From NCBI GenBank assembly GCA_964511015.1, contig CAZEDX010000002.1:197-64196 (forward strand): a stretch of 64,000 nt of DNA, given 5' to 3'. Of the stretch, positions 3 through 33,538 are shown piece by piece (position 1 is the first letter of the stretch; the number at the start of each line of letters is the position of its first letter). Source of the stretch: an uncultured bacterium. GTDB lineage: Bacteria; Lernaellota; Lernaellaia; Lernaellales; Lernaellaceae. The notes beneath the pieces are model-generated. The model was not told the DNA's origin. It saw nothing but the letters and a program-made list of their open reading frames with translations, and made no database searches. The position numbers and the translations under genes were made by a program.

Positions 3-1340
3 CACCGGGCCTGGTGGAGCAACGGCCGGCTCTCGCTGGCGTCGTGGTGGCGCCTGGGCACGAACTACGCCACCGCCGTCACGACCGACCAACTCGCCGC
101 ACTGATCGCCGATTCCGTGCGCCTGCGCTTGCGTTCGGATTTCCCCACCGGCCTGTTTCTTTCCGGCGGGCTCGATTCATCGGGTCTGTTGGCGACAATG
201 ACTCGCTTCTCCGGCGCGGTGCACACCTTCACCGCCACGTTGTCGGGCCTGCGCGCCGTGCGCCACGCCGGTCCACTGCAGGCGCGCTTCGGCAACCGCC
301 ACCACGATGTCGCGGTCGGGCCGGAAGCCATGGCGCATTGGCCGCGCATTGTTTGGCATTACGACGAGCTCAATGCCGACCCGGCGTCGCTGCCGATGTA
401 CGTGCTGGCGCGGCACGCCCGGCAACACGTCAAGGCGGTGCTATCGGGTGAAGGCGCCGACGAGGTGTTTGTCGGCTACGAACGCGCGGCGATTCTGCGC
501 TGGGCCTGGTCCTTGGCGCGCGTGGCACCGGCGGGCGCGTTGCGGCTGATCCCCGCCTTGCTGCGGCGCCTGCCGCCGCGTTGGGGCAACCTGCTGTTCC
601 GCTACTACTCGATTCTGGTTCCCGAAGGGATCGACCGACTGCAGCAGTTCCTGATCGATCTGCCCTCGCCCATCCGCGCGTATCTCGGCGTGCAATCGGT
701 GCTGATGCCCGGCGAGGCCGCGGCGCTGCTGTTGCCCGAGCACGCGCGCGACATCGGCGCGGATCGTCTGGCGGAAAAGCTGATGGCGCCGTGGTTCACC
801 CATGAGCCCGGTCCGGCCGCGGTGGGCGACATGCTGCGCTTCGAGCTGGCCAACCGCTTGCCGACCGACCTGCTGCTCAAAAGCGACGCCATGACCATGG
901 CGCACGGCCTCGAGTGCCGCGTGCCGTATCTCGACTACCGCCTGGTAGAAGCGGCGATGCGCCTGCCGCTTCGCGAACACCTGGGTCTGGCGACCAACAA
1001 GAAGCGGCTGCGCGCGGCGCTGGCGCGCGTATTGCCGCCGCACGTGGCGCAAGCCGGCAAGGAGAACTTCTTCGTGCCGATCCACCTCTGGCTCGACCGC
1101 GCGCGTCCGTGGATGGAAGAACTGCTCGCGGAAAAGCGCCTGCGCGAGCAAAGCATCTTCCGGCCGGAGGCGGTGCGGCAGATGATCGACCGCTACCGGG
1201 CCGGCGGCTTGTACTATGCCCGGCCATTGTGGAGTCTTTTGCACTATCAGCTCTGGCACCACATCTATTTGGAAAACGGCGGAGCTCAGCCGCCTGAGGA
1301 GGATGGTCCGCACCTGTCGCCGGGAGGATGCAACGAGTAA
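3..1340 (+). CDS. Asparagine synthetase (glutamine-hydrolysing) family amidotransferase, C-terminal synthetase domain; 5'-partial (runs off window start)
   Basis: Frame 3 is open from the window edge to the stop at 1340. PP-loop ATP-pyrophosphatase motif LSGGLDSS sits near the start of the fragment. The remaining ~400 aa look like the AsnB/WbpS-type synthetase domain. The N-terminal glutaminase domain must lie upstream of the window. Confidence 0.8.
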   Translation, partial: HRAWWSNGRLSLASWWRLGTNYATAVTTDQLAALIADSVRLRLRSDFPTGLFLSGGLDSSGLLATMTRFSGAVHTFTATLSGLRAVRHAGPLQARFGNRHHDVAVGPEAMAHWPRIVWHYDELNADPASLPMYVLARHARQHVKAVLSGEGADEVFVGYERAAILRWAWSLARVAPAGALRLIPALLRRLPPRWGNLLFRYYSILVPEGIDRLQQFLIDLPSPIRAYLGVQSVLMPGEAAALLLPEHARDIGADRLAEKLMAPWFTHEPGPAAVGDMLRFELANRLPTDLLLKSDAMTMAHGLECRVPYLDYRLVEAAMRLPLREHLGLATNKKRLRAALARVLPPHVAQAGKENFFVPIHLWLDRARPWMEELLAEKRLREQSIFRPEAVRQMIDRYRAGGLYYARPLWSLLHYQLWHHIYLENGGAQPPEEDGPHLSPGGCNE

Positions 1341-1618
1341 AAATATCGCGCGCTTTTTGGATGGCCTTCGCGCTGTTAATTAGTTTGGCCCCGGTGACCG
1401 CCGGTTGCGCGAATGAGTCGGCGTCGGGCAATGACGAGGATACCGGCCCGCCACCGGTTGACGACGACACCACCGATGCGGACGACGACGCGATCGATAA
1501 CGGAGTCGTGCATTTCCCGGCCGGATTCCAATTCGGAACCGCCACCACGGGTTTTTTCGTGGACATGAGTGGACCCACCCTTTCCCTGGTGTTGTGCACC
1601 GACGCCAATTCCGACTAG
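1328..1618 (+). CDS. Possible small acidic lipoprotein (signal peptide + lipobox VTAGC + D-rich linker); may be a gene remnant
   Basis: Signal-peptide-like N-terminus MQRVKISRAFWMAFALLISLAPVTAGC followed by an Asp-rich low-complexity stretch. It ends abruptly after FPAGFQFGTATTGF. Downstream a similar motif (YQFGTSP) appears in another frame, and GC drops there. Real gene or decayed fragment is uncertain. Confidence 0.3.
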   Translation: MQRVKISRAFWMAFALLISLAPVTAGCANESASGNDEDTGPPPVDDDTTDADDDAIDNGVVHFPAGFQFGTATTGFFVDMSGPTLSLVLCTDANSD

Positions 1619-2242
1619 TACCAGTTCGGGACCTCGCCGGCGAAACAGTCAACGCGAGAACATGGCTAGGCGACTAAATTTTTTCGGCCTGAACAATTGC
1701 GCCTGCCTGACCGTGCCTGGGCTGCTGTTCTCGCTGACGCCGTGGTCTACGCACCGCGGCATGTTCGAGGTCGATATCGACAATACGAGCAAGCCGCGCT
1801 GCGCGAGGAACATCGTCAGCCGCTGTCGCTCGATCGCCAGAACAAACGAAAGCCCGCCGGAGCTCACCGCCGAGAATCCGATAGATTTCGAAAAAGAAGA
1901 ACTTTTCGAAACAACGATAGCGTGACGCGCCGTAAGGTGAAAACGGAAAAATCGCTTATATTACAAACATTTCGTTCATTTTCCACAATTCGTATTTTGG
2001 CACTTAATGTCACTTTTGCGACAAAAATCCCGTTGTTGAAACGTCCAATTCTGCCGATTACATATTTGCGAGAATCGGTTGACCAGAAATCAAAATTAAA
2101 GTACGCTATGAGGTTAAGTGACCTAGTGAAAAGGTTTTGTTGTGTTTTTTGTATCCGCCACGATCCTCCTCCCCATCGCTAGGAATCGTGTGAGGGTATT
2201 GGCCAATTCGGCTGAGGTTGGAACGAAGAGGAGAGAAACAGC

Positions 2243-5200
2243 ATGGCCGAACTGCAGGAGCGCACCCCGGGAACCGTCTGGCTAGGACACAGAAAAGAAG
2301 CGAGAAAATCCTATCGTAGAAAGACCCTTGCGAGGGTCAGCGATTTGACCGGTCCATTTTCCGATTCCGAAGCCTTGGTCATGGACCTCAGTCTCGACGG
2401 CGTGTATTTACGGACCAAGGATCATCCCCCCGTTGGCGAGCGCATCGGCATGAACTTGTATCTGCCGTCCGGCGCCAAGCGGCCGATTCACATCGCCGGC
2501 CAGATCGTGCGCAACGACGAGCGCGGGCTTGGGCTACGATTCGAAGAGCTGCAATCGCGCGACCGGGCGAAGATCCGGCATTACTCGGCCTTCGTCGAAC
2601 TCGACGAAGCGATTGTGGAACTGCAGAACAAGCTGAAGGGCACGGTTTCCGGCAATCTGTTGCCGGTGAGCGAATGGCGCCTGATCGAAGAACGCCTTCT
2701 TGCCGCCAGCGAGCGGCGTCTTCCGGTGCGTGTGGTCTACTCCTTGCGCACGGGGCAGTTCGCCGAAGGCGAATTACAGTATCAAAACTGCGAATTGCGT
2801 TTGCAGCACCTGAAGACTGCCCTGCCTGAGGGCACGCGTGTGGTGTATTGCATCGTTGACGACGGCCCATTGCATTCGGTGTTTGAAGGTTTGATTCTGG
2901 AAAAGGGCATCAACCCGCTGCTGGTTCTGCCCGAGCGCATGTATCACAACGAGCGCCGCTGGAGCCGCCGCGAGGCCGTGACCAACACCTGGATGGTGGT
3001 TGAAGCCCCCCATCTGGAAAAGAGAGAACTGCGGTTGTCAGTCAACGACCTGAGCGAAGGCGGTTGTTCCGTTATGGCCCACCGCGACGCCGCATTGACC
3101 GTCGGTATGCGCTTTCCGGCCTTCCAACTGCTGAACCATGGCCGGGTATACAACCACGACGGCGCGACGATTACGCGCGTGACGCCCCAACCGCCGGAAG
3201 GCTGGTTGCTGGGCTTGAACTTCCTCGACCAGTCGCAGGACCGCGACGCCTTCGCCGAGATCAAAGACCGCAGCCTGCGCTCGAACTTCTGGACTTCGCT
3301 GCAGCGGGTCACCGGCATGGCACGCGACAAGATCACCCGCATGGTCGGCGGCAAGGCGGATGCGACCCGCGAGCGTCTGCACTTGGCGCACTACAAGAAC
3401 ACCCGCGGCGACATGGTGGCCGCGCTGCTCGACGCGACCTTCGACCTCAACGGCGACGCCCCGCCGGTGGACGTGGCCGTGGTCATCGGTCCGCCCTTCC
3501 CCGTGCGCAAAGAGGTCTTCAGCCTGCTGGCGCGCACGCTGATCGACAACTTCGCGGCGCAGGGTCTGCAAGCGGTGGTTTGCCGTTTCGACCTGACGCA
3601 TGCGTTGGGCGAAAGCGAAGTCGACCCGGAAATGGAGGCGAAGGGACACCCGTACCTGCGGTGGACCTACTCGCACCTCGAATCCGATATGATCGGTAGT
3701 TTCTCCTATCTGGAGCGCCGGTTCCGGCCGCGCAAGCGCGTTGTGGTCGCCTACTCGGTGGCCGCCATCGCCGCACGGCGTATGGTCGCCGACGGCAATA
3801 AGCCGCCGGTCGACCTGTTCATCGCGCCGTTCGGCTGCCCGGACGGCCAGGACATGTTCAAGAACCTGCTGGCGGGCGTCGACCTCTTTCCGATCTACCT
3901 GCGCGGCGAGAAGGCCGAACCGTTCCTGATTTACGGCCGCCTCTCCGACCCGAGCGGCGTGTTGCCCGACGCAATCAAACGCGGCATGGCGTTCCTCGAA
4001 GACGCGCGCAAAGACATGTCGAAGATCACCGTGCCGGTGGTGTGGATTGTCGGCACTTATGACTTCATGGTCACGCGCTCCCGTGTGCGTCAGATGCTCA
4101 ACGCGCCGGGCGGTGGTCCGCGCGAAATCATCGAAGTGGCCACCGGGCACAATCCGAAGATCGGCAGCGAGGCCATTGAATCGTTCAAGATCATCAGCGA
4201 GTCGATCAGCAAACACCTGTTCAACAACGCTCGCCCCGCCATCGAGCCCGACCTGGTCCGCGCCCAGCGGCAGTACGAGATCGAATGGGCGCGCACCAAG
4301 CGCAAGAAGTTCGTCAACGCCGCGGAGTACTGGAATCGTCACCTGTTCGGCACCGAGAAGTCAAAAGAAGGCTACGACGTGCTGCTCTACAACCCCGATT
4401 ACGTCGAATTTATCGAAAAGCAGGTCGACCTGCTCGATGTGCAGCCGGGCCACCGCGTGGCGGACATCGGTTGCGGCACGGGCAATTTGTCGGTCAAGTT
4501 GCTGGAGAAGAACGCGTTCAAGGCGCTGGACCTGAACTGCCTCGACCTGGTGCCCAACGCAGTCGACTGTACGCGCGGGAAAATCCAGGCCATGATCGCC
4601 AGTCCGGACGGCAGTTGCCGCAACGTGAATCTACATTGCCGGGTGGTCGATCTGGAAGCCGCTCGCCTTACCTGCTGGCAGGAATTCCTGTCCGGCCAGT
4701 TGCACGGGGTCGGCGCGGTCATCGGCCGCATCGAAGGACTGAATGCTCCCGCCATCCGCAAGATCGAACAGCACTACGGGCCGGAAATCCACCGCATCCT
4801 GCGCGGCGAAAAGGCGACGGTGAGCGACGTCCGCCGCTTGGTGACGGAGTTGGACGAAACCGAAGCCGAACTGGTGCTCGAGTTGTCGATGGCCAGCCGG
4901 TTCCTATTGGGCCGCACGCTGCCGGACGACCTGCGTCCGGGTGCGACCGTGGCGACCACTGCGGCCGATCTACGATTCCAACACCTGCATTTCGGACAGG
5001 CCAGCCCCACCTGCCGCATCGATTGCCCCGACGGGGCGTTCGACCGCATCGGTGGCTCGCTCATCCTGCCCTATCTCTACGACCCGGGCGCCGTACTGCG
5101 CGAATTGCGCCGCATGTTGGCGCCGGGCGGTGTGCTGGTGCTCTCCAGCCTCAAGCCGAATTTCGACTCGTCGAAGTCGTATCTCGAAGAAGCCGAAACG

Positions 5201-5440
5201 ATCAGCAAGCGCAAGGATCTGACCGATCTCGAGCGCGAACGGCTGCTGGCCAGCCTACGCGAGTTCTCGGCGTTTGTCGCGAGCATCATGGAAATGGAAG
5301 ACGAAGGTCGCTTCCGGTTCTTCGCGGCGGATGAATTCGCCAGCCTGGTGCGAGATGCCGGCTTCGTGAACGTGCAGACCGCGGAGAGCTTCGGCAAGCC
5401 GCCGACCGCCGTGATTGTGCGCGCGGAAAAAGGACGATGA
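2243..5440 (+). CDS. Multidomain c-di-GMP effector candidate: tandem PilZ domains + alpha/beta-hydrolase-like middle region + C-terminal class I SAM-dependent methyltransferase
   Basis: RBS GAGGAGAG lies 7 nt upstream of the ATG. PilZ motif pair 1 is RKSYRR...DLSLDG. PilZ motif pair 2 is RRWSRRE...NDLSEGG. A central region carries a nucleophile-elbow-like AYSVA plus a later GHNP. The methyltransferase motif I is VADIGCGTGNL, followed by LAPGGVLVL. Stop overlaps the next gene start (ATGA). Confidence 0.85.
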   Translation: MAELQERTPGTVWLGHRKEARKSYRRKTLARVSDLTGPFSDSEALVMDLSLDGVYLRTKDHPPVGERIGMNLYLPSGAKRPIHIAGQIVRNDERGLGLRFEELQSRDRAKIRHYSAFVELDEAIVELQNKLKGTVSGNLLPVSEWRLIEERLLAASERRLPVRVVYSLRTGQFAEGELQYQNCELRLQHLKTALPEGTRVVYCIVDDGPLHSVFEGLILEKGINPLLVLPERMYHNERRWSRREAVTNTWMVVEAPHLEKRELRLSVNDLSEGGCSVMAHRDAALTVGMRFPAFQLLNHGRVYNHDGATITRVTPQPPEGWLLGLNFLDQSQDRDAFAEIKDRSLRSNFWTSLQRVTGMARDKITRMVGGKADATRERLHLAHYKNTRGDMVAALLDATFDLNGDAPPVDVAVVIGPPFPVRKEVFSLLARTLIDNFAAQGLQAVVCRFDLTHALGESEVDPEMEAKGHPYLRWTYSHLESDMIGSFSYLERRFRPRKRVVVAYSVAAIAARRMVADGNKPPVDLFIAPFGCPDGQDMFKNLLAGVDLFPIYLRGEKAEPFLIYGRLSDPSGVLPDAIKRGMAFLEDARKDMSKITVPVVWIVGTYDFMVTRSRVRQMLNAPGGGPREIIEVATGHNPKIGSEAIESFKIISESISKHLFNNARPAIEPDLVRAQRQYEIEWARTKRKKFVNAAEYWNRHLFGTEKSKEGYDVLLYNPDYVEFIEKQVDLLDVQPGHRVADIGCGTGNLSVKLLEKNAFKALDLNCLDLVPNAVDCTRGKIQAMIASPDGSCRNVNLHCRVVDLEAARLTCWQEFLSGQLHGVGAVIGRIEGLNAPAIRKIEQHYGPEIHRILRGEKATVSDVRRLVTELDETEAELVLELSMASRFLLGRTLPDDLRPGATVATTAADLRFQHLHFGQASPTCRIDCPDGAFDRIGGSLILPYLYDPGAVLRELRRMLAPGGVLVLSSLKPNFDSSKSYLEEAETISKRKDLTDLERERLLASLREFSAFVASIMEMEDEGRFRFFAADEFASLVRDAGFVNVQTAESFGKPPTAVIVRAEKGR

Positions 5441-8043
5441 GCGAAGCGCAGTCCCCGACGCTCGAACAGACGCCACAGTTCCGGGAACGCCTTGTTTTCG
5501 AAACGCACGAACTGTTGGTGTCGCGTCTGCGCTATCTACTGATCATCGCCTGCTTCCTGTATTCCGCCTTCGTCATTCTGGATTTCGCCACTTCGCCGGA
5601 GCATGCTTGGCTCTTCTTGGCGATGCGCCTGTTCGTGATCGTCAATTACATCGCCGGCATCGCGCTGCTGGCCACGCAGGTCGGGCGCAAGATCGTGCTG
5701 CCGCTGTCGGTCTGGTCGGTCTTCGTCTCGAACCTGGGCGTGGTCGTGATGACCATCTATCTCGGCGGCTTCGCCAGCGTCTACTACATCGGCATCGTGT
5801 TCATTATTTTCGTCGCCGGCCTGTTCCTGCCGTGGACGGTGGCGCCGACGGTCACGCTCGGCCTATTGACCATAGGCAGCTACTTCCTGCTTAACTTCCT
5901 ACTGACCTTCACGCCGGATGTACCGGCCGCGCAGATTCTGCAGCCGTTCTTTTTCATGGGCGGCGCGGTGGTGTTCACGATCTTCGCCAACATCGGCCAA
6001 GCGCGCACCCGGCAACGCGACCTCGCCCAGCGCATGCAGATCGAAAAGGCCAACGAGGATCTCAAGGAACTCGACAAGGCCAAAATGCGCTTTTTCTCCA
6101 ACGTCAGCCACGAACTGCGCAGCCCGCTGACGCTGATTCTCGGCCCGCTGGAGGCCATGCTGCAGGGCGAGTCGCCCATGGATTCGCGGCCGCTGCTGGA
6201 AGCCATGGAGACCAACGCCCGCCGGCTGCTGCGGCAGGTCAACACGTTGTTGGATTTCGCCAAGATCGACGCCGGCAAGCTCGAGTGCAAGTTTGCCTAC
6301 GGCAACATCGGCCGCTTGCTCGAAGAGTTGCATCGCGCCACCTTCCCCCATACCGAACGCCGGCGCATTGCGCTTACGCTGGAAGGCACGGCGGATCTGC
6401 CCGATTCGATCCTCGACATCAACAAGGCCGAAACGATCGCCGCCAACCTGATCTCCAACGCGGTGAAATTCACACCCGACGGCGGCCGGATCGCGATCCG
6501 CGCCGGCTTCGACGAAGACCGCGTGTGGTTCGAGGTCGAGGACACCGGCAGCGGCATTCCGGAAGACCAGCTCAGCCGCATTTTCGAACGTTTTCTGCAA
6601 CTCGACGACGCCCTCTCCCGCCGCGCCGAGGGCACGGGCCTGGGCCTGGCCATGGTGCAGGAACTGACCAAACTGCACGGCGGCCGGGTCAATGTGAAAT
6701 CTCAGGTCGGCGTCGGCACCACCTTCACGGTGGAACTACCGCGCCGTCCGGACGTCAAACCGATCGATCGCCGCCGCATCATCGGCCGTCGCAAGATCGA
6801 CCAGTTGGCGCAAGAACGCACGATCTCGATGCTCGGCGTGACCTACGAACAACGTTCGGGCACCAAGACGCTGCTGGCCGATGTCGCCGGCGCGCGCCTG
6901 ACCGGCGGCGTGTTGAGCGACCAGGAAGTCAAACAGACGGCCCCGCCGGACGCGCAGAAGGTACTGGTGGTCGACGACAACCCCGATATTCGCACCTTCA
7001 TAGCCAGCAACCTGACGGCGGAATACCGCATCGCAATGGCCGGCGACGGCATTGAAGCGCTCGAGGTCGCGTCCCGCTTCCAGCCCGATCTGATCATTTC
7101 AGACATCATGATGCCGCGAATGGACGGCTACGAACTGTGCCGCCGCATTCGCGAAGACAAGACGTTGAACCAGACGCCGATCATTCTGGCCACCTCGAAA
7201 TCCGGCAGCGAGGCGGTGGTCGAAGGTTTGCAGACCGGCGCCAACGACTACATCGCCAAGCCCTTCGAGATCCGAGAACTGCGGGCGCGCGTGGCGGCCC
7301 ACCTGCGCACCCGGCGCTTGGAGCGCAGCTTGAACGAGCGCGAGAGCCGGTTGGCGGCGATCGGCCAGATGACCAGTTCGATCGTGCACGACCTGAAAAA
7401 CCCGTTGAGCACGATCATCGGTTTCGCCGAGATGGCCAAAGAAGACGCCCAACTCGGCAACACCAAGGATCTGGCGGCGAATCTCGACCCGGTAATCACC
7501 GAATCCCGCCGCCTTGGCCGCATGATCGCCGAAGTGCTGGATTTCGCGCGCGGCTACAGCGCCGAGGTCAACCTCGAACCGACCGCGCTGGTGCCCTATC
7601 TGTCCATGGCCTACACCACGTGGAAAGGCAAGTTGGAGCAGCTGGGCATTGAGTTGATCGCCGAACACCGGATTCCCGAACGACTGCAAATCAATCTGGA
7701 CCCGGATCGCATGATGCGGGTCATGGAGAACCTCTTCCGCAACGCACAGGAAGCATTGGCGGGTGAAGGTCGCGACCCCAAGGGCAAGCACGTCTGGTTG
7801 ACCACCGATGCCGACGGCGAAACCGTCAAGATTCGCGTGGCCGACGACGGCCCGGGCATTCCCGACGAACTGGCGGCACGGCTGTTCGAACCGTTTGCCA
7901 CCGCCGGCAAGAAATCGGGAACCGGCCTGGGGCTGGCCACCGTGCGGAATCTCGTGAAAGCGCAAGGGGGCGAGATTTCGGTGGTGCCCAAGTGTCCGGA
8001 GGGCGGCGCGGCTTTTGTCATGACTTTCCCGGTCCAAGCGTAG
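5437..8043 (+). CDS. Hybrid sensor histidine kinase with membrane sensor, HisKA+HATPase, receiver, then a second HisKA+HATPase core
   Basis: About 6 N-terminal TM helices. First H-box FFSNVSHELRSPL and G2 box GTGLGLA. Receiver: VLVVDDNPDIR...DLIISDIMMPRMDG. Second H-box IVHDLKNPLSTI with N box NLFRNAQEA, DDGPGIP and GTGLGLATV. Translationally coupled to the upstream gene. Confidence 0.9.
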   Translation: MSEAQSPTLEQTPQFRERLVFETHELLVSRLRYLLIIACFLYSAFVILDFATSPEHAWLFLAMRLFVIVNYIAGIALLATQVGRKIVLPLSVWSVFVSNLGVVVMTIYLGGFASVYYIGIVFIIFVAGLFLPWTVAPTVTLGLLTIGSYFLLNFLLTFTPDVPAAQILQPFFFMGGAVVFTIFANIGQARTRQRDLAQRMQIEKANEDLKELDKAKMRFFSNVSHELRSPLTLILGPLEAMLQGESPMDSRPLLEAMETNARRLLRQVNTLLDFAKIDAGKLECKFAYGNIGRLLEELHRATFPHTERRRIALTLEGTADLPDSILDINKAETIAANLISNAVKFTPDGGRIAIRAGFDEDRVWFEVEDTGSGIPEDQLSRIFERFLQLDDALSRRAEGTGLGLAMVQELTKLHGGRVNVKSQVGVGTTFTVELPRRPDVKPIDRRRIIGRRKIDQLAQERTISMLGVTYEQRSGTKTLLADVAGARLTGGVLSDQEVKQTAPPDAQKVLVVDDNPDIRTFIASNLTAEYRIAMAGDGIEALEVASRFQPDLIISDIMMPRMDGYELCRRIREDKTLNQTPIILATSKSGSEAVVEGLQTGANDYIAKPFEIRELRARVAAHLRTRRLERSLNERESRLAAIGQMTSSIVHDLKNPLSTIIGFAEMAKEDAQLGNTKDLAANLDPVITESRRLGRMIAEVLDFARGYSAEVNLEPTALVPYLSMAYTTWKGKLEQLGIELIAEHRIPERLQINLDPDRMMRVMENLFRNAQEALAGEGRDPKGKHVWLTTDADGETVKIRVADDGPGIPDELAARLFEPFATAGKKSGTGLGLATVRNLVKAQGGEISVVPKCPEGGAAFVMTFPVQA

Positions 8044-8107
8044 TAGGATCAGGCGGCAGACAAGCCGCCCCGACTGAGTACGAACAGCGCACAAGGGGGA
8101 GAGGATC

Positions 8108-9190
8108 GTGGAAGAAGCCAAACGCATTCTGGTTGTTGACGACGAGGAGATGATCCGCCGCTTGTCGTCCACCCTCCTGACCCGGTTGGGTTACGAGGTG
8201 ACCGAAGCCGTCGACGGCGTGGATGGCCTGGAAAAGGTTATCGCCAACCCGCCCGACCTGATCCTGCTGGACATTCAGATGCCTCGGATGGACGGTTTGG
8301 AAGTCGCCCGACGCCTGAAGGAATCGCCCGACACCAAACACATTCCGATCGTCATCGTTTCGTCCTTCTCCGATCTCGAACCGCGGGTGAAAGCGCTGGA
8401 GATCGGCGTCGACGACTTCCTGTCCAAACCGGTCGACCGCACTGAACTGCGCGCGCGTGTGCAATCGTTGCTCAAGGTCAAGGCCTACAACGACCACATG
8501 TTGCACTATCAGAAGGTGCTCGAAGAGGAAGTCATCAAGCGCACCGAACAGCTGCGCCTGGCCTACGACGAATTGAAGACCACGACCGATCGTCTGCAAC
8601 GCGCGTCGCTCGACACGATCTTCCGGCTGTCGCAGGCGGCGGAATACAAGGACGAAGACACCGGCAGCCACATCAAGCGGATGGGCTACTACTCGGCGAC
8701 CATCGCCCGCCAGTTGAACATGAACGATGCGGAAGTGGAGGCGATCCTCTACGCCGCGCCGATGCACGATATCGGCAAGATCGGCATACCCGACCGCATT
8801 CTGCTCAAGCCCGGCAAGCTCGACAAAGACGAATGGGAAACGATGAAACAACATACGGTGATCGGCAAGGATCTGCTCAAGGGGTCCGAATCCGAATTGC
8901 TGCGCATGGGCGAAACCATCGCCTTGTCGCACCACGAGAAGTGGGACGGAACCGGCTATCCGGTCGGCATGCGGGCCGCCGACATTCCGCTGGTCGGCCG
9001 CATTACCGCAATCGCCGATGTCTTCGATGCGCTGACCTCGCGCCGACCTTATAAGGATCCCTTCCCCGTCGAAAAAGCGCTGGCCATTATCCAAGAGAAC
9101 CGGGGCACGCACTTCGACCCGACGGTTGTCGACGCGTTTTTCACGGTTAAAGACAAGATCATGGAAATCCGGGTTGGCTGGCCGGAATAA
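8108..9190 (+). CDS. Response regulator with HD-GYP c-di-GMP phosphodiesterase domain (RpfG-like)
   Basis: GTG start preceded by GGGGGAGAGGA. REC motifs ILVVDDEE...DLILLDIQMPRMDG. HD-GYP motifs HDIGKIGIP and HHEKWDGTGYP. Confidence 0.9.
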   Translation: MEEAKRILVVDDEEMIRRLSSTLLTRLGYEVTEAVDGVDGLEKVIANPPDLILLDIQMPRMDGLEVARRLKESPDTKHIPIVIVSSFSDLEPRVKALEIGVDDFLSKPVDRTELRARVQSLLKVKAYNDHMLHYQKVLEEEVIKRTEQLRLAYDELKTTTDRLQRASLDTIFRLSQAAEYKDEDTGSHIKRMGYYSATIARQLNMNDAEVEAILYAAPMHDIGKIGIPDRILLKPGKLDKDEWETMKQHTVIGKDLLKGSESELLRMGETIALSHHEKWDGTGYPVGMRAADIPLVGRITAIADVFDALTSRRPYKDPFPVEKALAIIQENRGTHFDPTVVDAFFTVKDKIMEIRVGWPE

Positions 9191-9220
9191 CGGTTTTCTG
9201 GCTTTTAGGGAACCGGAATA

Positions 9221-9520
9221 CTAACTGGCGTGGCGCATCTCGGGCGGCTGGTTCAGCCACTCCATTGAGGCGCTTGTCACCCTGAACGACAGCCGGCCGT
9301 AGAAACCGGCGGCCTTGGCCTTTTCCAGCAACATGGCCATACCCATCATGGACAGGCCCTGAGCGTGGCTGAGATCGACCACGGCCACCCGCTCGGTGGC
9401 TTTTAGAATCTGCTCCAGACGGCTGACCATGGCCAAGCCGCAGGCGCTGTCCAGCTCACCGGTTACAAACATAACTATTCGATTTGACGTCCATATTTCG
9501 TTCCAACCGGCATCCTTCAT
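9221..9520 (-). CDS. STAS-domain protein (anti-sigma-factor antagonist SpoIIAA-like)
   Basis: STAS-like sequence VTGELDSACGLAMV...VAVVDLSHAQGLSMMGMAMLL. Start moved to the internal ATG at 9520 because AAGGAG sits 9 nt upstream on the minus strand. The longer ORF to 9604 has no RBS. Confidence 0.65.
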   Translation of the reverse strand: MKDAGWNEIWTSNRIVMFVTGELDSACGLAMVSRLEQILKATERVAVVDLSHAQGLSMMGMAMLLEKAKAAGFYGRLSFRVTSASMEWLNQPPEMRHAS

Positions 9521-9681
9521 CACATTGCACTCCTTTGCGTCATACCCAACGACGCTTGCGCGCCTTCTCCTTACCTGCTGGCGTGCTGCCGAACCATTCG
9601 ACACACGGAAACCCCGATTTGTTCACGCCGTACACGTAAAACAATTCCAATCTCACGGCGCATCTTTTTCAAGGTACAAGT

Positions 9682-9700
9682 ATATCGGCAGATATCGGCA
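9682..9700. promoter_or_regulatory. Tandem direct repeat ATATCGGCA-g-ATATCGGCA in the divergent intergenic region between the STAS gene and the macA-like gene
   Basis: Exact 9-nt direct repeat with 10-bp period, read directly from the sequence. Candidate transcription-factor binding site. Confidence 0.3.
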
Positions 9701-9941
9701 AATAGTTTACCTCTCTTTGTCCTTCTCACCCTCGCCGTTTGTATCGATTGCGTATCCAATATTGAACCGGCCATCGAATCGTTCCATCTCTGTGTTAGTC
9801 GGGAGCGAGGGAGAAGCCCCTGAAGAAACGCGGGCGATTCCCTTGGCTAGGCCTACGGTCGGAACCTGAACAACGCCCAAGACCGACCGCGGGCCACCAC
9901 GGCGCCGGTGGTTCCCCTCGACGGCGTAGTGAGGGACAATC

Positions 9942-11204
9942 ATGAGTACACGCAAGACAAAAACGCGATTGATGTTGGTCGTTTTGCTCGTGGCCATGGT
10001 GGCGGCCGGCTTCCTCGTGCTGGGACGCAACCGCACCGTCGTTCCCCAGTACGAAACGGCGAAGGTAGAACAAGGTGCAATTGTCGCGAAAGTCACGGCC
10101 ACCGGATCGTTGTCGGCGTTGGTCACGGTCGAGGTGGGCAGCCAGGTTTCCGGCCGTCTCGCGGAATTGCTGGTGGACTACAATTCCCCAGTCAAGAAAG
10201 GTCAGGTACTGGCGCGAATCGATCCGCAGTTTTTTCAAGCGGCGCTCGAGCAGTCGCGCGCCAACTATCAGGCGTCACAGGCCAACTTGACCAAAGCCCA
10301 GGTGCAGGCCGAGGAAGCCCGGCGTAACTTCGAGCGCGCCAAAAGCCTGCGCGAACGGAATCTGATCGCCCAGGCCGATCTCGACGCGGCCCAGGCCACG
10401 TATGATGCCATGCGCGCGGAGATCGACGCCGCCCAGGCCGCGCTGTCGGTGGCGCGCGCGACATTGCATCAGGCGGAATTGAATCTGAGCTACACCACCA
10501 TCGTTTCCCCCGTGGACGGCATCGTGATTTCGCGCGCTGTATCCGTCGGTCAGACGGTGGCCGCGTCGCTCCAAGCCCCTACGCTGTTCACTATCGCTGA
10601 AGACCTGCGCCGCATGCAGGTCGACACCAGTGTGGCGGAATCCGACGTCGGCCGCCTCGCGCCTGGTTTGAAAGCGACCTTCACCGTCGATGCTTATCCG
10701 ACCGAGGAGTTTGTCGGCACAATCCGCCAGGTGCGCAACTCCCCGCAGACGGTGCAAAATGTCGTGACTTACGACGCGGTGATCAATGTGGACAACCCCG
10801 ACCTGCGCCTCAAGCCCGGCATGACCGCCAACTGCACGTTCGTCTATGCCGAACGCGCCAATGCCGTGCGCATTCCGAACGCAGCGCTTCGTTTCAAGCC
10901 GGCCGCTCCGCTCGTCACGGCGGACGTCGACACCTCCGACGTCGCCGTAGCCTCACCAGCCGTCTCACCACCGGCCGCGGTGGCTACGGCCGACAGCCGA
11001 ACCATTTGGGTGCTGCGAAATGGCTACCCACAGGCCGTGACCATTCGGATCGGCATCACCGACGGCTCCTGGACCGAAGTGACTGCCGGCGAACTTCGCC
11101 CGGGCGACGAGGTCATCACCGGCCAGGCCAGTGGCGAGGCAGCGGGCGGCAACGGCAAATCGTCGGCCAAACGTAACAGCGCACCGCCGCCTCCGATGTT
11201 CTAG
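9942..11204 (+). CDS. Periplasmic adaptor (HlyD/MacA-type membrane fusion protein) of a tripartite efflux system
   Basis: N-terminal TM/signal anchor, coiled-coil region and lipoyl/beta-barrel motifs typical of MacA-family adaptors. Directly upstream of MacB-like ATPase and permease genes. GAGGGA precedes the ATG. Confidence 0.85.
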   Translation: MSTRKTKTRLMLVVLLVAMVAAGFLVLGRNRTVVPQYETAKVEQGAIVAKVTATGSLSALVTVEVGSQVSGRLAELLVDYNSPVKKGQVLARIDPQFFQAALEQSRANYQASQANLTKAQVQAEEARRNFERAKSLRERNLIAQADLDAAQATYDAMRAEIDAAQAALSVARATLHQAELNLSYTTIVSPVDGIVISRAVSVGQTVAASLQAPTLFTIAEDLRRMQVDTSVAESDVGRLAPGLKATFTVDAYPTEEFVGTIRQVRNSPQTVQNVVTYDAVINVDNPDLRLKPGMTANCTFVYAERANAVRIPNAALRFKPAAPLVTADVDTSDVAVASPAVSPPAAVATADSRTIWVLRNGYPQAVTIRIGITDGSWTEVTAGELRPGDEVITGQASGEAAGGNGKSSAKRNSAPPPPMF

Positions 11205-11212
11205 GTATCGCC

Positions 11213-11944
11213 ATGAACGCCCAATCGCCCCTGATCCAGTTGGAGAATGTGACCAAGGTCTATCTGGCCGGCGACCTCGAGGTGCCTGCGTTGCATGGAT
11301 TAGATCTGACTATCGAAACGGGCGACTTCGTTGCCATCATGGGCGCATCCGGCTCGGGCAAATCCACGTTGATGAACATCTTGGGTTGTCTGGACCGCCC
11401 CACCAGCGGCCGCTATCGCCTGTCCGGCCGCGACGTTTCCCAGTTAAGCAAGGACGAGCTGGCGGGCATACGCAACCAACTTCTGGGCTTCGTATTCCAA
11501 AGTTTCAATCTGCTCCCGCGCACCAGCGCACTGGAAAACGTGGAACTTCCTCTTCTCTACTCGACTACTCCCGCCCGCACCCGACACGAGCTGGCCCGGC
11601 TGGCGTTGCAACGAGTCGGCCTGAAAGACCGCATGGAACACCACCCGAATCAACTGTCCGGCGGCCAGCAACAACGTGTAGCGATCGCCCGGGCGTTGGT
11701 AACCTCTCCCCAACTGGTACTGGCCGACGAGCCGACCGGCAATCTCGATTCGCGAACCAGCGTCGAAATCATGGGACTGTTCCAGGAACTTGGTCGCGCG
11801 GGCATTACCGTTATATTGGTCACCCACGAACCGGACATCGCGCAGTACGCCTCACGCGTCCTGGTCATGAAAGACGGACGGGTCGTCTCAGACCGGCGCC
11901 AGACTCCGCTCGCGACCAACCCAGCCAAACAGGAGGCGTCATGA
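11213..11944 (+). CDS. ABC transporter ATP-binding protein (MacB/LolD-like)
   Basis: Walker A GASGSGKST, Q-loop, signature [15 protein letters not shown], Walker B LVLADEPTGNLD. Confidence 0.95.
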   Translation: MNAQSPLIQLENVTKVYLAGDLEVPALHGLDLTIETGDFVAIMGASGSGKSTLMNILGCLDRPTSGRYRLSGRDVSQLSKDELAGIRNQLLGFVFQSFNLLPRTSALENVELPLLYSTTPARTRHELARLALQRVGLKDRMEHHPNQLSGGQQQRVAIARALVTSPQLVLADEPTGNLDSRTSVEIMGLFQELGRAGITVILVTHEPDIAQYASRVLVMKDGRVVSDRRQTPLATNPAKQEAS

Positions 11945-13170
11945 GCTTGTTGCAAACCTTCCGCATCGCCGTGCGCGCCGTGCGTCGCAACAAGATGCGT
12001 TCGTTTCTCACCGCGCTAGGCATCATCATCGGCGTTTCCGCGGTGATTGCGATGATGGCGCTCGGCGAAGGAGCAAAGGCGCAAGTGGCGAATGTGTTCC
12101 AATCGATGGGCTCCAACATGCTGATCGTGCTGCCGGGCTCTACCACGTCCGGCGGCGCTCGGGGCGGGTTCGGCTCCATGCCCACGCTTACCTGGGCGGA
12201 CCTGAAAGCGATTCAGTCCGAGCTTTCCAGCGTGCGCTATGCGGCGCCGGAGTTGCGCACCAGCGCCGCGGTCGCCAGCGAAGAACAGAACTGGACCACC
12301 CAGGTCAACGGCACGACCCCCGACTTCTTTGCAATTCGCAACTGGAAACTGGCCAGCGGTGCGCTCTTCAGTGAGGCCGACGTGGAGGCCAATGCCAAGG
12401 TCGTCGTCCTCGGCCAGACGGTCGTGACGCAACTGTATGGCGCTTCCGCCGACCCGGTCGGCCAAGTAGTCCGCATTAACAAGGTTCCGTTCCAGGTTGT
12501 CGGCGTGCTGGCCAAGAAGGGCCAATCAGCGATGGGCATGGACGTCGACGATGCCGTCTTCATTCCAGTCACGGCCTACCAGACCAAGATCCAGGGCGGG
12601 CTGCAGGAGTACGTCAACGGCGCCATACTGGTGGGATCGTATTCCCCGGAAGCGACGGTTCGCGCGGAGACGGAAATCAGCGATCTGCTTCGCGAACGTC
12701 ACCATCTGGCGGCCGGAGCCGAAAACGACTTCTCGATTCGCAACCTGCAAGAGATGGCCAGCGCCATGGAGTCAAGCACCGCGACCATGACTACGCTGCT
12801 GGCGGGCATCGCCGCGGTGTCTCTGCTGGTCGGCGGCATCGGCATCATGAACATCATGCTCGTTAGCGTCACCGAACGCACGCGCGAAATCGGCTTGCGC
12901 ATGGCCGTGGGCGCGCGGCCCCGCCACATTCTGGCCCAGTTCCTGGTCGAATCCTTCACCCTCTCGGTGGGTGGCGGGCTGATCGGACTGATCGTCGGCA
13001 TGGTTGCCGCCCAACAAGTCTCCTCGCGACTCGGCTGGCAACTCGTGATCCAACCCGGTATCGTGGCGCTCGCTATCGGCTTTAGTGCCGTGGTCGGCAT
13101 TGGTTTCGGCCTGTACCCGGCCACCAAAGCCTCGCGGCTCGACCCCATCCAGGCCCTGCACTACGAATAG
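11941..13170 (+). CDS. ABC transporter permease, FtsX/MacB-type (4 TM with large periplasmic domain)
   Basis: The ATG at 11941 overlaps the upstream stop (ATGA) and is preceded by CAGGAGG. Product shows the MacB/FtsX topology with a periplasmic domain between TM1 and TM2. The longer track ORF starting at 11131 is a frame artefact running across the ATPase gene. Confidence 0.9.
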   Translation: MSLLQTFRIAVRAVRRNKMRSFLTALGIIIGVSAVIAMMALGEGAKAQVANVFQSMGSNMLIVLPGSTTSGGARGGFGSMPTLTWADLKAIQSELSSVRYAAPELRTSAAVASEEQNWTTQVNGTTPDFFAIRNWKLASGALFSEADVEANAKVVVLGQTVVTQLYGASADPVGQVVRINKVPFQVVGVLAKKGQSAMGMDVDDAVFIPVTAYQTKIQGGLQEYVNGAILVGSYSPEATVRAETEISDLLRERHHLAAGAENDFSIRNLQEMASAMESSTATMTTLLAGIAAVSLLVGGIGIMNIMLVSVTERTREIGLRMAVGARPRHILAQFLVESFTLSVGGGLIGLIVGMVAAQQVSSRLGWQLVIQPGIVALAIGFSAVVGIGFGLYPATKASRLDPIQALHYE

Positions 13171-15943: not shown

Positions 15944-17506
15944 ATGACAAGGATACGCAACCTCGGATTGACCATGGCCTTGGTGTTCGTCGTTGCCGGC
16001 CTAGCTACGGCCGAAGTGCCCACGATGGCCGGTTGGCCGCAAACGGTCCCGGGTTCGACCTACTTCGCGAACATGGGCGGTCTGGTGTTGGCCAACATCG
16101 ATGACACTCCCGATTTGGAAGTGATCGTCGGCACCACGGCACAAAAACTGCACGTCTGGAAATACGACGGCAGCCTGGTCTTCACGGTAAACCTGACCGG
16201 TTGCGCCCAGGGCGTTCCCGCCGTCGGCGACGTCATCGGCGATAGCGCGCCTGAGATTGTCGTCACCACCCGCCCGTCGTTGAAAGCCAACGTCGGCACG
16301 GTGCACGTCTTCTCGGGCGCGGGCGACCTGCTCTACTCGGCCGCGATGGATCACAACGGCAGCCTGATGAACTCGCCGACGCTGGCCGACCTCGACGCCG
16401 ACGGCAAAAAAGAGATCATCGTGGGGGAAGAGGACAATCCGGACGGCTGGCTGTATGCGCTCGAGGGTGACCTCACCGCGATGAACAAAGCCTGGCCGGC
16501 CAAGCTCGACCATGTGCCGGCAACCAGTGCGGCGGCCGGCGACATCGACGGCGACGGCGACCCCGAAATCGCCGTCTGCTCGTTCCTGAGCCTCTATGCG
16601 TTCGAAACTGACGGCACGCTCCTCGCCGGCTTCCCCGTCACGTTGGCCGACGAAACCTACAGCTACGGCTCGCCGGCGTTGGCCGACCTCAACAGAGACG
16701 GGACGTTGGAGATCCTCACCATCACGCACGGTGATGAGAGCTTCGTTCACGCGATTCAGTATGACGGTTCCGAACTCACTGGCTGGCCGTACAGCCTCGG
16801 CAACTACTGGAGCTTCGGACCGCCGTCCGTCGGCGATCTTGACGGTGACGGCGAGCTGGAAGTCGTGGCCGGTCGGCAAGGCGGTAGCGTGGTATCCGAA
16901 GAGCTGTTCGTCATCACTCATGAAGGCGACGACTTCGGTAACTTCCCCTACGCCATCGCCGGCGGCGTCGAAGGCAATATCCTGCTCGCCGATTTCACGG
17001 GTGACAACAGGGTGGAAATCGTCTTCAGCAGCAACCTGGCCAACAGCGGTCAGGGCTACATGCACGCGGTCGATGCAGCGGCCCAGCCGCTTGCCGACTG
17101 GCCGTTGCGGCCTGAAGGCCTCACTTACCTAAACGGCGCGACCATGGGCGATGTGAACAACGACGGCGTGCCCGAATTCGGCGTGCTGGCTGTGGATTCC
17201 GTCGGCGACGGCTCGGTGAGTGTGGGCCTGTACCGCAACCCCGACTATTTTTTTGGCGCGGGCGGCGTGCACTGGCGCACCTACCAAGCCGACGACGGGC
17301 ACACCGGGCTGTACGACCCGATCTGGCCCGATGACGACGACACCACCGACGACGACGCGACGGATGACGACTCCGACGACGACCAGACCGACGACGACAG
17401 CGACGACGACAATGACGACAATGATGACGCCTCCGACGGCGACGCCGATGACGATCAGGCCGACAACAACGGCGATGATGACGACGACAACGGCTGCGGC
17501 AATTAG
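15944..17506 (+). CDS. Secreted FG-GAP/VCBS-type beta-propeller repeat protein with C-terminal poly-Asp tail ending GCGN
   Basis: AAGGAG lies 8 nt upstream of the ATG at 15944. Signal peptide MTRIRNLGLTMALVFVVAGLATA. Repeated Ca-binding-like motifs DLDADGKKEI, DIDGDGDPEI, DLNRDGTLEI, DLDGDGELEV and DVNNDGVPEF. About 70 C-terminal residues are almost entirely D/N/T/S. Confidence 0.85.
   Translation: MTRIRNLGLTMALVFVVAGLATAEVPTMAGWPQTVPGSTYFANMGGLVLANIDDTPDLEVIVGTTAQKLHVWKYDGSLVFTVNLTGCAQGVPAVGDVIGDSAPEIVVTTRPSLKANVGTVHVFSGAGDLLYSAAMDHNGSLMNSPTLADLDADGKKEIIVGEEDNPDGWLYALEGDLTAMNKAWPAKLDHVPATSAAAGDIDGDGDPEIAVCSFLSLYAFETDGTLLAGFPVTLADETYSYGSPALADLNRDGTLEILTITHGDESFVHAIQYDGSELTGWPYSLGNYWSFGPPSVGDLDGDGELEVVAGRQGGSVVSEELFVITHEGDDFGNFPYAIAGGVEGNILLADFTGDNRVEIVFSSNLANSGQGYMHAVDAAAQPLADWPLRPEGLTYLNGATMGDVNNDGVPEFGVLAVDSVGDGSVSVGLYRNPDYFFGAGGVHWRTYQADDGHTGLYDPIWPDDDDTTDDDATDDDSDDDQTDDDSDDDNDDNDDASDGDADDDQADNNGDDDDDNGCGN
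17331..17503 (+). repeat. Coding (GAY)n low-complexity tract encoding C-terminal poly-Asp tail
   Basis: Codon-level gac/gat repeats read directly. They encode DDDDTTDDDATDDDSDDD...DDDDDNGCGN. Confidence 0.6.
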
Positions 17507-26712: not shown

Positions 26713-27046
26713 CATTTGCTTCTCTTCTCCGTCAATCAGATTGCGCAAAACACCTATTGGTCGCTCGTGCGCCTGCCGATACCAAGACTAGCGAGAAGGT
26801 ATATTCGGGAGCAGTCGGTCTATCTCGGGCAAAAATGAACGGACAAGAGTCGATGGAACGCGTAACGCTTGACTGCGAATGGCGGTTGTCGGATTCTGGT
26901 TTGGGGCATCAAAAGCTCACGCGAAAAATGCATCTTAGCTAACCTCCGGATCGGGATTCGGTGCCTCCAACGGCTTGTTACAGACCGTTCTTGACGAGGT
27001 ATTGAAGAAATATCGTTTGGGTCAAGGCCGAGGGGAAGCCGATACG

Positions 27047-33000: not shown

Positions 33001-33538
33001 CGGCGGCGAAGTCGATTTCGCCACGAAACCGTTGGTGCAAGAATATGATCCGCTGGAAAACAAATGGCTCAAGTGGCCGGCCAATCGCGAGTACCTGCCG
33101 CTCAGGGTAAACACTATCGTGCCCCCTTTCCCGGCGCTGCAGCAACCCACGCGTGCCTGGGGTCCGGCGCAAATGATCGCCGACGAATTCCGCTTCCCCG
33201 ACCTTGGTTCGTCGGTGATGTTCTCCGGCGTTTTCGGCCTGATGAAATGCGTGTTGGAGGACCACTTCACCCGCGAACTGAACGTACTGGACGGCTTCGC
33301 CATTGTGTATGGCCCGCTACGGAAGCCGCTGGTCTGCGAGGGCGCCATTCTGTTTGGCGACGGCGCAATCTCTACCGAATACCTGGTGTTCTCGCCGCGC
33401 ATCTACCCGTTGGCGGGCAAGGGCAAACCGCCAAACCGATACTCCGACATCTTCGAGCGCTTGTCGCAGGAGCTGGGTGGCAAGATTCTTAGCTTCGCTA
33501 CCGAAGCCATCACCGCCACCCGAGGATGGTACTGGTAA
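30023..33538 (+). CDS. Giant polytopic membrane protein (~14 predicted TM helices, aa 1-600) fused to a cytoplasmic DUF362 domain plus ~270-aa C-terminal extension
   Basis: Long hydrophobic helices throughout the N-terminal 600 aa. DUF362 hallmark VFIKPNIVVP...TDADLV...IDIPKMKTHLQSAVTLGIKNSHG...IVDGYDALEGIGPWPGD...IASNDVVAADLV. Alternative start is the ATG at 30068 (GGGGAGGG upstream). Confidence 0.8.
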   Translation: MRTFLFTTALDWGGRMAKHPGIWSRRTDSEGYWNLLLVTALAIAVLLFLLRSNAVNLDEFWLAFLFEYVVALWISFSMPTTRVITLALVGAGVGCGTEFTAAHAELWTYANDVGVVAGILIYSLTAIALFGLVYVINRVLAHHKFFRATAWGNSLIVLLLFLSLFAWAYGQENNQYWANIFAHPVVVIYYFFLFLFAVTIAYCLRLSALLAIIAAAVLVSLVGQTAGGIWAGIWRFLPTAPKPVTSPPDYLVYALWPLEYFVEFGFSAFLSDLLIYLFKVRPERNGKDNKDPHLPIPFWDWSHPEGRVAGLTRETGHSLVKMLRRTPETGELIVAMVGPLVVFLSLFPEHHWRPSPGAAIASAAVFGIALFVSSRPYWKRTAALVVGGLVFGGMIWIAAEMKVLGEAPTLHLTALPLSALLLVSIYGLAHLTTQLFARLLPAQKEWEDHGEPKRAVVSVVTILMLIIVALFVWNPAFLFPDPHAEPAGAPALFVFGFGVLLIFTLWWYFFMVPLRRSAIQTVVAALATVVFLLPIDWRDGQLAWQRLLWQSVGLVIAYLFVFTTSAHVANEPLAKAIRRTYWWRRCAGKREVVFHDKPHQQGRHRVLDKDTGVMHTYPPKETGVSVAVATQPEEPGQTLPTIRETVRLALEQLRGHWPKPGTTDQTVEKVKEAVAGKTVFIKPNIVVPTGSPYTTDADLVDEVAKYCLEHGAAKVLIGEIAISNITSRMSLVGTGVYDYWKRRNGVEVHLLDEEMLIRVHLSDDPGNKIHPADPTGAPDPQCPVPAETQNRVVFNQFHMPYLMVDADTFFIDIPKMKTHLQSAVTLGIKNSHGAIAECDRGCKHQQISQKVVDITKVWLPDLTIVDGYDALEGIGPWPGDLVPLRAVIASNDVVAADLVAGQMMWKEPVEGRTPAESAPDFRSPVDFDTKFVKTTWLGYEQRLGLLDPRAVKYDYSTNDPDWNTFLRRHCYERPFRDPDYCDEGLIMNIGQRVGGEVDFATKPLVQEYDPLENKWLKWPANREYLPLRVNTIVPPFPALQQPTRAWGPAQMIADEFRFPDLGSSVMFSGVFGLMKCVLEDHFTRELNVLDGFAIVYGPLRKPLVCEGAILFGDGAISTEYLVFSPRIYPLAGKGKPPNRYSDIFERLSQELGGKILSFATEAITATRGWYW

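Follow-up and report, generated by a model that had tools for sequence, protein, structure and literature searches.

A predicted c-di-GMP receptor fused to a LuxD-like hydrolase and a methyltransferase, encoded with a membrane hybrid kinase and an HD-GYP regulator in an uncultured Lernaellaceae bacterium

The window analysed here, a stretch of 64,000 nucleotides (nt) from contig CAZEDX010000002.1 of an uncultured bacterium of the family Lernaellaceae (assembly GCA_964511015.1), contains a three-gene locus that opens with the gene of a 1065-residue fusion protein, hereafter the target. Its N-terminal part comprises PilZ-type domains, predicted receptors of cyclic dimeric guanosine monophosphate (c-di-GMP), and is followed by an α/β-hydrolase-like domain and an S-adenosylmethionine (SAM)-dependent methyltransferase domain. 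The two genes downstream encode a hybrid histidine kinase (HK) and a response regulator with a receiver (REC) domain and an HD-GYP domain. The features of the locus are listed below with the basis of each assignment, where AF2 denotes AlphaFold2.

2228..2233 (+): Shine-Dalgarno-like GAGGAG, 9 nt 5' of the target ATG; read in the sequence
2243..5440 (+): target gene, 1065-residue predicted PilZ / xPilZ-PilZ / LuxD-like hydrolase / SAM methyltransferase fusion; open reading frame (ORF), Pfam, homologues and AF2 model
2291..2587 (+): PilZ domain 1 (PilZ1), residues 17-115, with R21xxxR25, D48xS50xxG53 and a C-terminal helix; Pfam PF07238
2660..2938 (+): PilZN-like (xPilZ) β domain, residues ~140-232; AF2, profile and Foldseek matches
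2939..3232 (+): PilZ domain 2 (PilZ2), residues ~233-330, with R239xxxR243 and D269xS271xxG274; hhalign, family Pfam matches and conservation
3233..3370 (+): low-confidence linker with one long helix, residues 331-376; AF2
3371..4228 (+): LuxD-like α/β-hydrolase domain, residues ~377-662; predicted structure and profile comparison
3755-3757, 4061-4063 and 4148-4150 (+), within 3371..4228: proposed hydrolase triad Ser505, Asp607 and His636; conservation and LuxD alignment
4250..5437 (+): class I SAM-dependent methyltransferase domain, residues ~670-1065, with an N-terminal helical extension; Pfam, PDB profile matches and AF2
4646..5032 (+): ~130-residue helical insert between β3 and β4 of the methyltransferase, residues ~802-930; Pfam split and AF2
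5437..8043 (+): partner kinase, 868 residues, ~6 transmembrane (TM) helices, then HisKA-HATPase, REC and a second HisKA-HATPase; Pfam, with the TM helices assigned by eye
8108..9190 (+): RpfG-type response regulator REC-HD-GYP, 360 residues; Pfam Response_reg and HD_5/HD

The target ORF starts with ATG and runs over 1065 codons in the window translation. Its homologues, at 43-99% identity, fall into 80 protein clusters of equal length and domain order, and a scan of species-representative genomes found the protein in 58 genomes from at least three phyla. The carriers in Thermodesulfobacteriota are Syntrophus, Desulfobacula, Desulfotignum and Desulfoluna limicola ASN36, the last being a cultured carrier with a complete genome, in which the gene is DSLASN_30670; the others belong to Acidobacteriota (Thermoanaerobaculia, Holophagales), in addition to one metagenome-assembled genome (MAG) of Myxococcales and one of Planctomycetota. 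An exhaustive profile search at E<=1e-30 yielded 415 family representatives, counted as 50%-identity clusters. As full-length homologues occur in 80 clusters and 58 species genomes, the target ORF is judged to be real, and this conservation excludes a chance ORF or a one-off fusion. The initial annotation, made from the letters of the window alone, had outlined the same ORF and listed its sequence motifs, all of which are read in the translation and are conserved in the family. Public annotation names family members just "PilZ domain-containing protein" or "methyltransferase domain-containing protein", and no NCBIfam model reached its cut-off in a scan of the target protein. Two contigs of one Syntrophus MAG (L003 and L004) each carry the target gene with its partners. 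Their identities to the proteins of the window are almost the same, pointing to a duplication or assembly redundancy.

A full-length AlphaFold2 model of the target was built from a 73-sequence alignment, with a predicted local distance difference test (pLDDT) score of 81.9 and a predicted template modelling (pTM) score of 0.61. Residue conservation beyond the close family was scored in a sample of 148 distant representatives. This sample shows hardly any variation in the catalytic residues, the SAM-binding residues or the PilZ2 motifs, so both enzyme domains and the receptor are under selection.

A Pfam scan of the whole target revealed a single significant PilZ stretch, corresponding to PilZ1, which matches PF07238 at 50.5 bits over a cut-off of 22.5 (E=2.8e-13). 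Its motifs R21-x3-R25 (residue 26 is also an Arg) and D48-x-S50-x-x-G53 vary little or not at all within the close family, and the model folds residues 29-102 into a β-barrel, followed by a helix at residues 105-115. The initial annotation had counted two PilZ domains from two motif pairs; both pairs are indeed intact, but Pfam significance is limited to the first. PilZ2 of the target scanned alone remains below the Pfam threshold (13 bits, E=0.13) and was identified by other means: 27 of 35 family members match Pfam PilZ in the corresponding region, the best at 2.9e-5, and alignment of the PilZ1 profile to PilZ2 by hhalign gave E=1.3e-4, and in it RRxxxR, DxSxxG and the last strand of both domains coincide. 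The model shows a second β-barrel at residues 233-326. Of the 148 distant representatives, 125 are aligned at PilZ2, and 123-124 of these retain R239, R243 and G274; PilZ1 is absent from many distant relatives. Because the PilZ2 motif is thus retained at distances where PilZ1 is often missing, PilZ2 would be the universal receptor of the superfamily and PilZ1 an addition in the clade of the target. A variation within PilZ2 was seen in the Acidobacteriota loci L016-L058 (Thermoanaerobaculia/Holophagales), in which the Ser of DxSxxG is replaced by Gly (DLGEGG).

The stretch between the two PilZ domains, residues ~140-232, is composed of one helix and five strands in the AF2 secondary structure. 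A profile of residues 136-365 matched YcgR/MrkH-type PDB chains (5ked, E=0.017), including the stretch preceding RxxxR, and a Foldseek comparison of the model with Escherichia coli YcgR in complex with c-di-GMP (5y6f) aligned 237 columns at E=4e-10. Pfam PilZN was not matched in the family scan, apart from one member at E=0.29. Taken together, sequence and model indicate that the N-terminus consists of a canonical PilZ domain followed by a YcgR-like xPilZ-PilZ pair; both c-di-GMP motif sets are intact, and c-di-GMP binding is predicted. Residues ~140-330 thereby resemble the two-domain receptors of the YcgR/MotI type, with RxxxR lying in the inter-domain linker. Downstream of this module, residues 329-376 have pLDDT values below 50 and form a linker with one helix at residues 349-368 in the AF2 model.

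The middle domain carries the motifs AYS505VA and G635-H636-NP, whose Ser and His had been picked out in the initial annotation as a nucleophile elbow and a distal His; both are conserved, and Asp607 is added here as their acid partner. Modelled separately, residues 372-700 reached a pLDDT of 86 and a pTM of 0.88, and the α/β part spans residues 380-660 in the full-length model. The elements follow the canonical order β1-β2-β3-αA-β4-αB-β5-[Ser505]-αC-β6-cap-β7-[Asp607]-αE-β8-[His636]-αF, with the nucleophile elbow after β5, the acid after β7 and the His after β8, as in the α/β-hydrolase fold. The hydrolase fold suspected earlier is accordingly present in the predicted structure, but Pfam gave solely sub-threshold matches, to FSH1 and Hydrolase_4, on this domain. 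The proposed triad is retained in the distant representatives, at 139/143 for Ser505, 145/145 for Asp607 and 146/146 for His636.

Structural comparison placed LuxD (PDB 1THT), the myristoyl-ACP thioesterase/acyltransferase of Vibrio harveyi (Pfam PF02273), as the closest fold neighbour, and 1THT is likewise the top Foldseek hit of the full-length model. Alignment of the family profile against the 1THT sequence by hhalign covered 240 columns at E=8.1e-5 and 13-15% identity. In this alignment Ser505, Asp607 and His636 pair with Ser114, Asp211 and His241, which we take to be the LuxD triad in the 1THT structure. The small-x-Ser-x-small elbow of the target pairs with AASLS of LuxD, and RFDLTHALGES pairs with RYDSLHHVGLSS. 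Moreover, two distant members match the LuxD family model Pfam PF02273 (Acyl_transf_2): P0130 passes the cut-off of 20.3 bits with 23.7, and P0112 reaches 19.3 bits. We therefore propose that the middle domain is an α/β hydrolase of the LuxD type (acyl-ACP thioesterase/acyltransferase), with conserved Ser505, Asp607 and His636 and a predicted activity of that kind; membership of the LuxD family is supported by fold and profile, yet lacks Pfam support on the target sequence itself. LuxD is a separate enzyme encoded in the lux operon and feeds a fatty-acid reductase, whereas the domain of the target shares its chain with PilZ receptors and a methyltransferase and has no tie to luminescence.

The methyltransferase recognized in the initial annotation is supported by six Pfam class I models above their cut-offs, drawn from the small-molecule families Methyltransf_11/12/23/25/31 and the UbiE type. 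The translation contains VADIGCGTGNL (D741, G743-G747) and LAPGGVLVL, and motif I (D741-G743-x-G745-x-G747) together with D768 at the end of β2 is near-invariant in both the close family and the distant representatives. The AF2 model has the Rossmann strand order over residues 738-1062, with helices at residues 671-731 ahead of the fold. Profile matches in the PDB are only small-molecule class I enzymes, including RebM and the methyltransferases of phosphoethanolamine, glucose and juvenile-hormone acid. The C-terminus thus appears to be a class I SAM methyltransferase of the small-molecule type, the substrate class being a prediction. The Pfam matches are split around the insert at residues ~802-930, which shows helices only in the AF2 model and has E805, R808, R829, E831, H850 and R886 invariant in the close family; it is missing from variants of ~830 residues, in which the methyltransferase runs uninterrupted. 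This insert of ~130 residues and the PilZN-like domain at residues ~140-232 are the two predicted elements by which the domain layout of the initial annotation needs to be corrected.

The stop codon of the target overlaps the start codon of the partner kinase in an ATGA at 5437-5440. The ~6 TM helices of the kinase, read by eye in its translation, lie at residues ~30-190 (nt 5524-6006) without a large loop. The REC-HD-GYP gene starts 64 nt past the kinase stop. Its product retains the receiver Asp (LLDIQMP), HDIGK and HHEKWDGTGYP; with REC and a complete HD-GYP domain bearing the HD, HHE and GYP motifs, it belongs to the RpfG family as defined by these elements. Among NCBIfam models it comes closest to the NosR-family c-di-GMP phosphodiesterase response regulator, under the cut-off. 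The next listed ORF, of 127 residues at 9221-9604 (-), lies inside the 750-nt gap that follows. Since it is on the opposite strand, the transcription unit consists of three genes and, as the sequence suggests, ends at 9190. Further downstream, an HlyD-family membrane-fusion protein and a MacB-like permease (MacB_PCD, FtsX) are encoded at 9942-13170 (+), their ORFs overlapping as listed. These were considered as a product exporter and rejected, on account of the 750-nt gap with its opposite-strand ORF and of their not being conserved beside the module.

The pairing of the target with its kinase was surveyed in the 58 species loci. The same HK-REC-HK kinase directly follows the target in 53 of the 53 loci that have at least 300 nt of downstream DNA, and an HD-GYP gene adjoins the module in about 32 of the 37 loci with room on both sides. 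The HD-GYP gene lies adjacent upstream of the target in Acidobacteriota (21/37) and adjacent after the kinase in the Thermodesulfobacteriota clade (9/37); in a further two loci it is fused to the kinase (L009) or present as a frameshifted upstream copy (L055). All-vs-all clustering of the flanking ORFs of the 58 loci, which was dominated by spurious antisense ORFs of high-GC DNA, revealed no conserved neighbour beyond the kinase and the HD-GYP gene; the clustered candidates that were checked turned out to be unrelated housekeeping genes (F420 oxidoreductase-like, DNA alkylation repair). The operon with a hybrid kinase and an HD-GYP phosphodiesterase, noticed from the start, is therefore borne out as a three-gene module conserved across phyla, in which the gene arrangement indicates that the target is translationally coupled to the kinase and co-transcribed with the REC-HD-GYP gene.

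The neighbourhoods of eleven distant representatives were also sampled; a further contig (L064) ends at the target gene. The variants of ~830 residues possess neither PilZ1 nor the methyltransferase insert. MASE8 was weakly matched, in kinases of distant variants only. The neighbours found are as follows.

L060, 1185 residues: FadL-type channel upstream; overlapping acyl carrier protein, acyl-AMP ligase and then a kinase downstream
L069/L070, 1193 residues: small ORF, radical SAM enzyme and AMP ligase downstream
L059, ~830 residues: MMPL transporter downstream
L062/L063, ~830 residues: MMPL transporter, then a hybrid kinase with the same layout
L067, ~830 residues: HK-REC-HK kinase with a weak MASE8 match
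L071, 1187 residues: HK-REC-HK kinase downstream
L061, 1184 residues with an N-terminal REC: TM-HK-REC-HD-GYP fusion, 31% identical to the window kinase over residues 2-619

Across the superfamily, the enzyme thus seems to travel with this type of kinase and with genes predicted to load, carry or export fatty-acyl compounds.

On these grounds we propose, with a probability of roughly 45%, that the target is a c-di-GMP-gated synthase of a methylated fatty-acyl signal, which operates in a feedback loop with the kinase and the HD-GYP regulator. Domain identities, conservation and gene linkage were computed; the chemistry and the circuit are what we infer from them. Ser505 of the LuxD-like domain would accept the fatty-acyl moiety of an acyl-carrier-protein or coenzyme A (CoA) thioester, and the acyl product released from it would be methylated by the methyltransferase. 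The simplest chemistry for a LuxD-type thioesterase joined to a small-molecule methyltransferase would be to free a fatty acid and O-methylate it, yielding a fatty-acid methyl ester, the kind of compound reported for PhcB of Ralstonia. The lipophilic product might then be sensed by the partner kinase within the membrane, and a membrane-embedded sensor without a large loop would suit such a ligand. The kinase would phosphorylate the HD-GYP regulator and thereby set the c-di-GMP level, and c-di-GMP bound to the PilZ module would turn the synthase on or off, closing the loop.

The proposed loop has parallels in two known lipid-signalling systems. The phcBSRQ genes of Ralstonia encode a methyltransferase, a sensor kinase, a protein with REC and kinase domains and a REC protein, and the system makes and senses methyl 3-hydroxymyristate (PMC8578825). 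The order in the window is similar, with a methyltransferase enzyme, a TM-HK-REC-HK kinase and a REC-output protein, and the kinase, having two HisKA-HATPase cores around a REC domain, shows the layout expected of PhcS fused to PhcR. There are differences between the two systems. The Phc literature consulted does not mention PilZ or thioesterase domains in PhcB, which makes methyl 3-hydroxymyristate/palmitate; the Phc output is the regulator PhcA, compared to an HD-GYP phosphodiesterase in the window; and Phc is found in Betaproteobacteria, whereas the module occurs in Thermodesulfobacteriota, Acidobacteriota and Myxococcota. The second system is Rpf of Xanthomonas, which is devoted to the diffusible signal factor (DSF) and whose order rpfF-rpfC-rpfG is mirrored by the enzyme, the polytopic-membrane hybrid kinase and the REC-HD-GYP protein. 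Phosphodiesterase activity in the RpfG family depends on REC phosphorylation (10.1101/2021.11.05.467447), and a work cited in PMC6989110 is given there for direct regulation of the synthase by the receiver domain of RpfC as well. RpfF, however, is a crotonase-family synthase, which the target is not, and the c-di-GMP receptor domains carried by the target synthase itself are a feature not described for Rpf in the literature consulted.

Several observations weigh against a c-di-GMP-gated signal synthase. The specificities of α/β hydrolases and class I methyltransferases cannot be read from the fold. The hydrolase domain of the target has no PF02273 match even at E<=10, and PDB sequence searches with the hydrolase profiles found nothing significant, with LuxD reaching only E=0.55. 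The TM sensor domain of the kinase has no significant family match in Pfam, and the Phc parallel is architectural only, drawn from operon layout and not from sequence. In addition, 5/37 loci have no adjacent HD-GYP gene, and two of the distant variants (L065 and L066) have no neighbouring kinase. Genes for acyl carrier protein, acyl-AMP ligase, FadL and MMPL are absent from the window operon; such lipid-gene neighbours are seen only beside distant variants, in one to three loci each.

The same domain evidence would also fit a non-signalling role in lipid biosynthesis or remodelling, which we consider unlikely. The product would then be a structural or secondary-metabolite lipid, for instance a wax-like ester, a surfactant or a methyl-masked dicarboxylate in the style of BioC/BioH, with c-di-GMP and the two-component system only regulating output and the kinase sensing something else. 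Neighbouring genes for acyl carrier protein, AMP ligase, radical SAM enzyme and MMPL transporter do look like lipid biosynthesis or export clusters, and some members are labelled "pimeloyl-ACP methyl ester carboxylesterase" by JGI. The target itself gives weak generic matches to BioC and BioH, but these are far under the NCBIfam cut-offs (33.4 bits against 184.95 for BioC, 16 against 206.95 for BioH), so that membership of either family was rejected. Furthermore, pairing with one membrane kinase in every locus scored, along with the translational coupling, is a trait of synthase-sensor pairs more than of metabolic genes.

The invariant pairing of enzyme and kinase is also consistent with an adaptor, in which the PilZ module would bind the partner kinase, e.g. 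its REC domain, and tune the phosphorelay by c-di-GMP, the enzyme domains being accessory or serving as ligand sensors. A PilZ adaptor acting on a hybrid kinase has a precedent in HapZ-SagS (cited in PMC12564702), and PilZ1 keeps the C-terminal helix that is the usual protein-interaction surface (10.1101/814665; AF2 model). As the main role of the protein this is improbable, given that the near-invariant Ser/Asp/His and SAM-binding motifs of the 148 distant representatives argue for catalysis; as an additional role it complements the proposed synthase rather than competing with it. Similarly improbable is the write/erase methylation switch put forward in the initial annotation by analogy with CheR/CheB, in which, under the control of c-di-GMP, the methyltransferase would mark a protein such as the tightly coupled kinase, or a small molecule, and the hydrolase would strip the methyl ester: both catalytic centres are conserved, methyl esterases do occur among α/β hydrolases, and on sequence alone a methyl-esterase activity keeps some probability, but structure, profile and Pfam all place the hydrolase nearest to LuxD, an acyl-ACP thioesterase, rather than to an esterase family, no CheR or CheB model is among the Pfam/NCBIfam matches of the target (its membership of a CheR/CheB pair being rejected for these two reasons), the methyltransferase comes from small-molecule families, and the lipid-handling neighbours of distant variants would have no role in a protein methylation switch.

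We regard the target as a PilZ effector whose enzymatic output is new and whose signalling partner is conserved. In reviews of PilZ and c-di-GMP effectors, the outputs comprise polysaccharide synthases, flagellar motors, transcription factors and adaptors on kinases or CheR1, and methyltransferases appear only via MapZ-CheR1 (10.1101/814665, PMC12564702). MapZ and HapZ resemble the target in that a PilZ protein lets c-di-GMP control a methyltransferase (CheR1) or a hybrid kinase (SagS); they act in trans, however, MapZ on a chemotaxis protein methyltransferase, whereas the PilZ domains of the target lie in cis with a methyltransferase of the small-molecule type. Proteins with PilZ domains in tandem, both with their motifs intact, have been described (10.1101/814665), but these and the YcgR/MotI receptors are small adaptors on flagellar motors and the like, compared to the N-terminal regulator of a ~700-residue two-enzyme body in the target. 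Full-text literature searches found no description of a PilZ-hydrolase-methyltransferase fusion, in agreement with the earlier surmise that this effector class is undescribed. An enzyme pair for fatty-acyl thioesters and small-molecule methylation would be a new kind of c-di-GMP output.

We suggest tentatively that the target may be the first known of a large and so far undescribed class: autoinducer-type synthases under direct control of c-di-GMP that form a self-contained circuit with a membrane kinase and an HD-GYP regulator. If the product is the ligand of the partner kinase, the module would wire lipid signalling of the Phc/DSF type directly to c-di-GMP, with the synthase as the receptor. 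Cell-cell or autocrine lipid signalling would then be joined to c-di-GMP in anaerobic Thermodesulfobacteriota, Acidobacteriota and Myxococcota; to our knowledge, these anaerobic phyla are poorly studied, and we know of no quorum-sensing chemistry in them.

Upstream of the target, the GC content drops to ~0.53-0.59 (window positions 1500-2240), compared to ~0.62-0.65 inside the gene, and this low-GC stretch would fit an intergenic control region. A simple sigma-70-like scan of positions 1300-10000 detected no promoter-like site, and terminator-like sites occurred there at chance rate. A 161-residue ORF at 1697-2182 has no family match. A tblastn search of the hydrolase and methyltransferase domains against the PLSDB plasmids returned no match.

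Further genes of note lie in the same window. About 17 kb from the module, 26975-29908 (+) encodes a 977-residue protein in which several PAS domains precede GGDEF and an HD domain of the HD-GYP type, predicted to be a composite c-di-GMP cyclase/phosphodiesterase. A hybrid histidine kinase of 1508 residues, encoded at 17503-22029 (-), contains at least five PAS domains, and its N-terminus is weakly PocR-like and diguanylate-cyclase-sensor-like. A 1344-residue Ser/Thr kinase-AAA_16-TPR protein (34831-38865, +) is preceded by a 1171-residue DUF362 protein (30023-33538) and followed by a B12-binding radical SAM enzyme (38895-40178, +).

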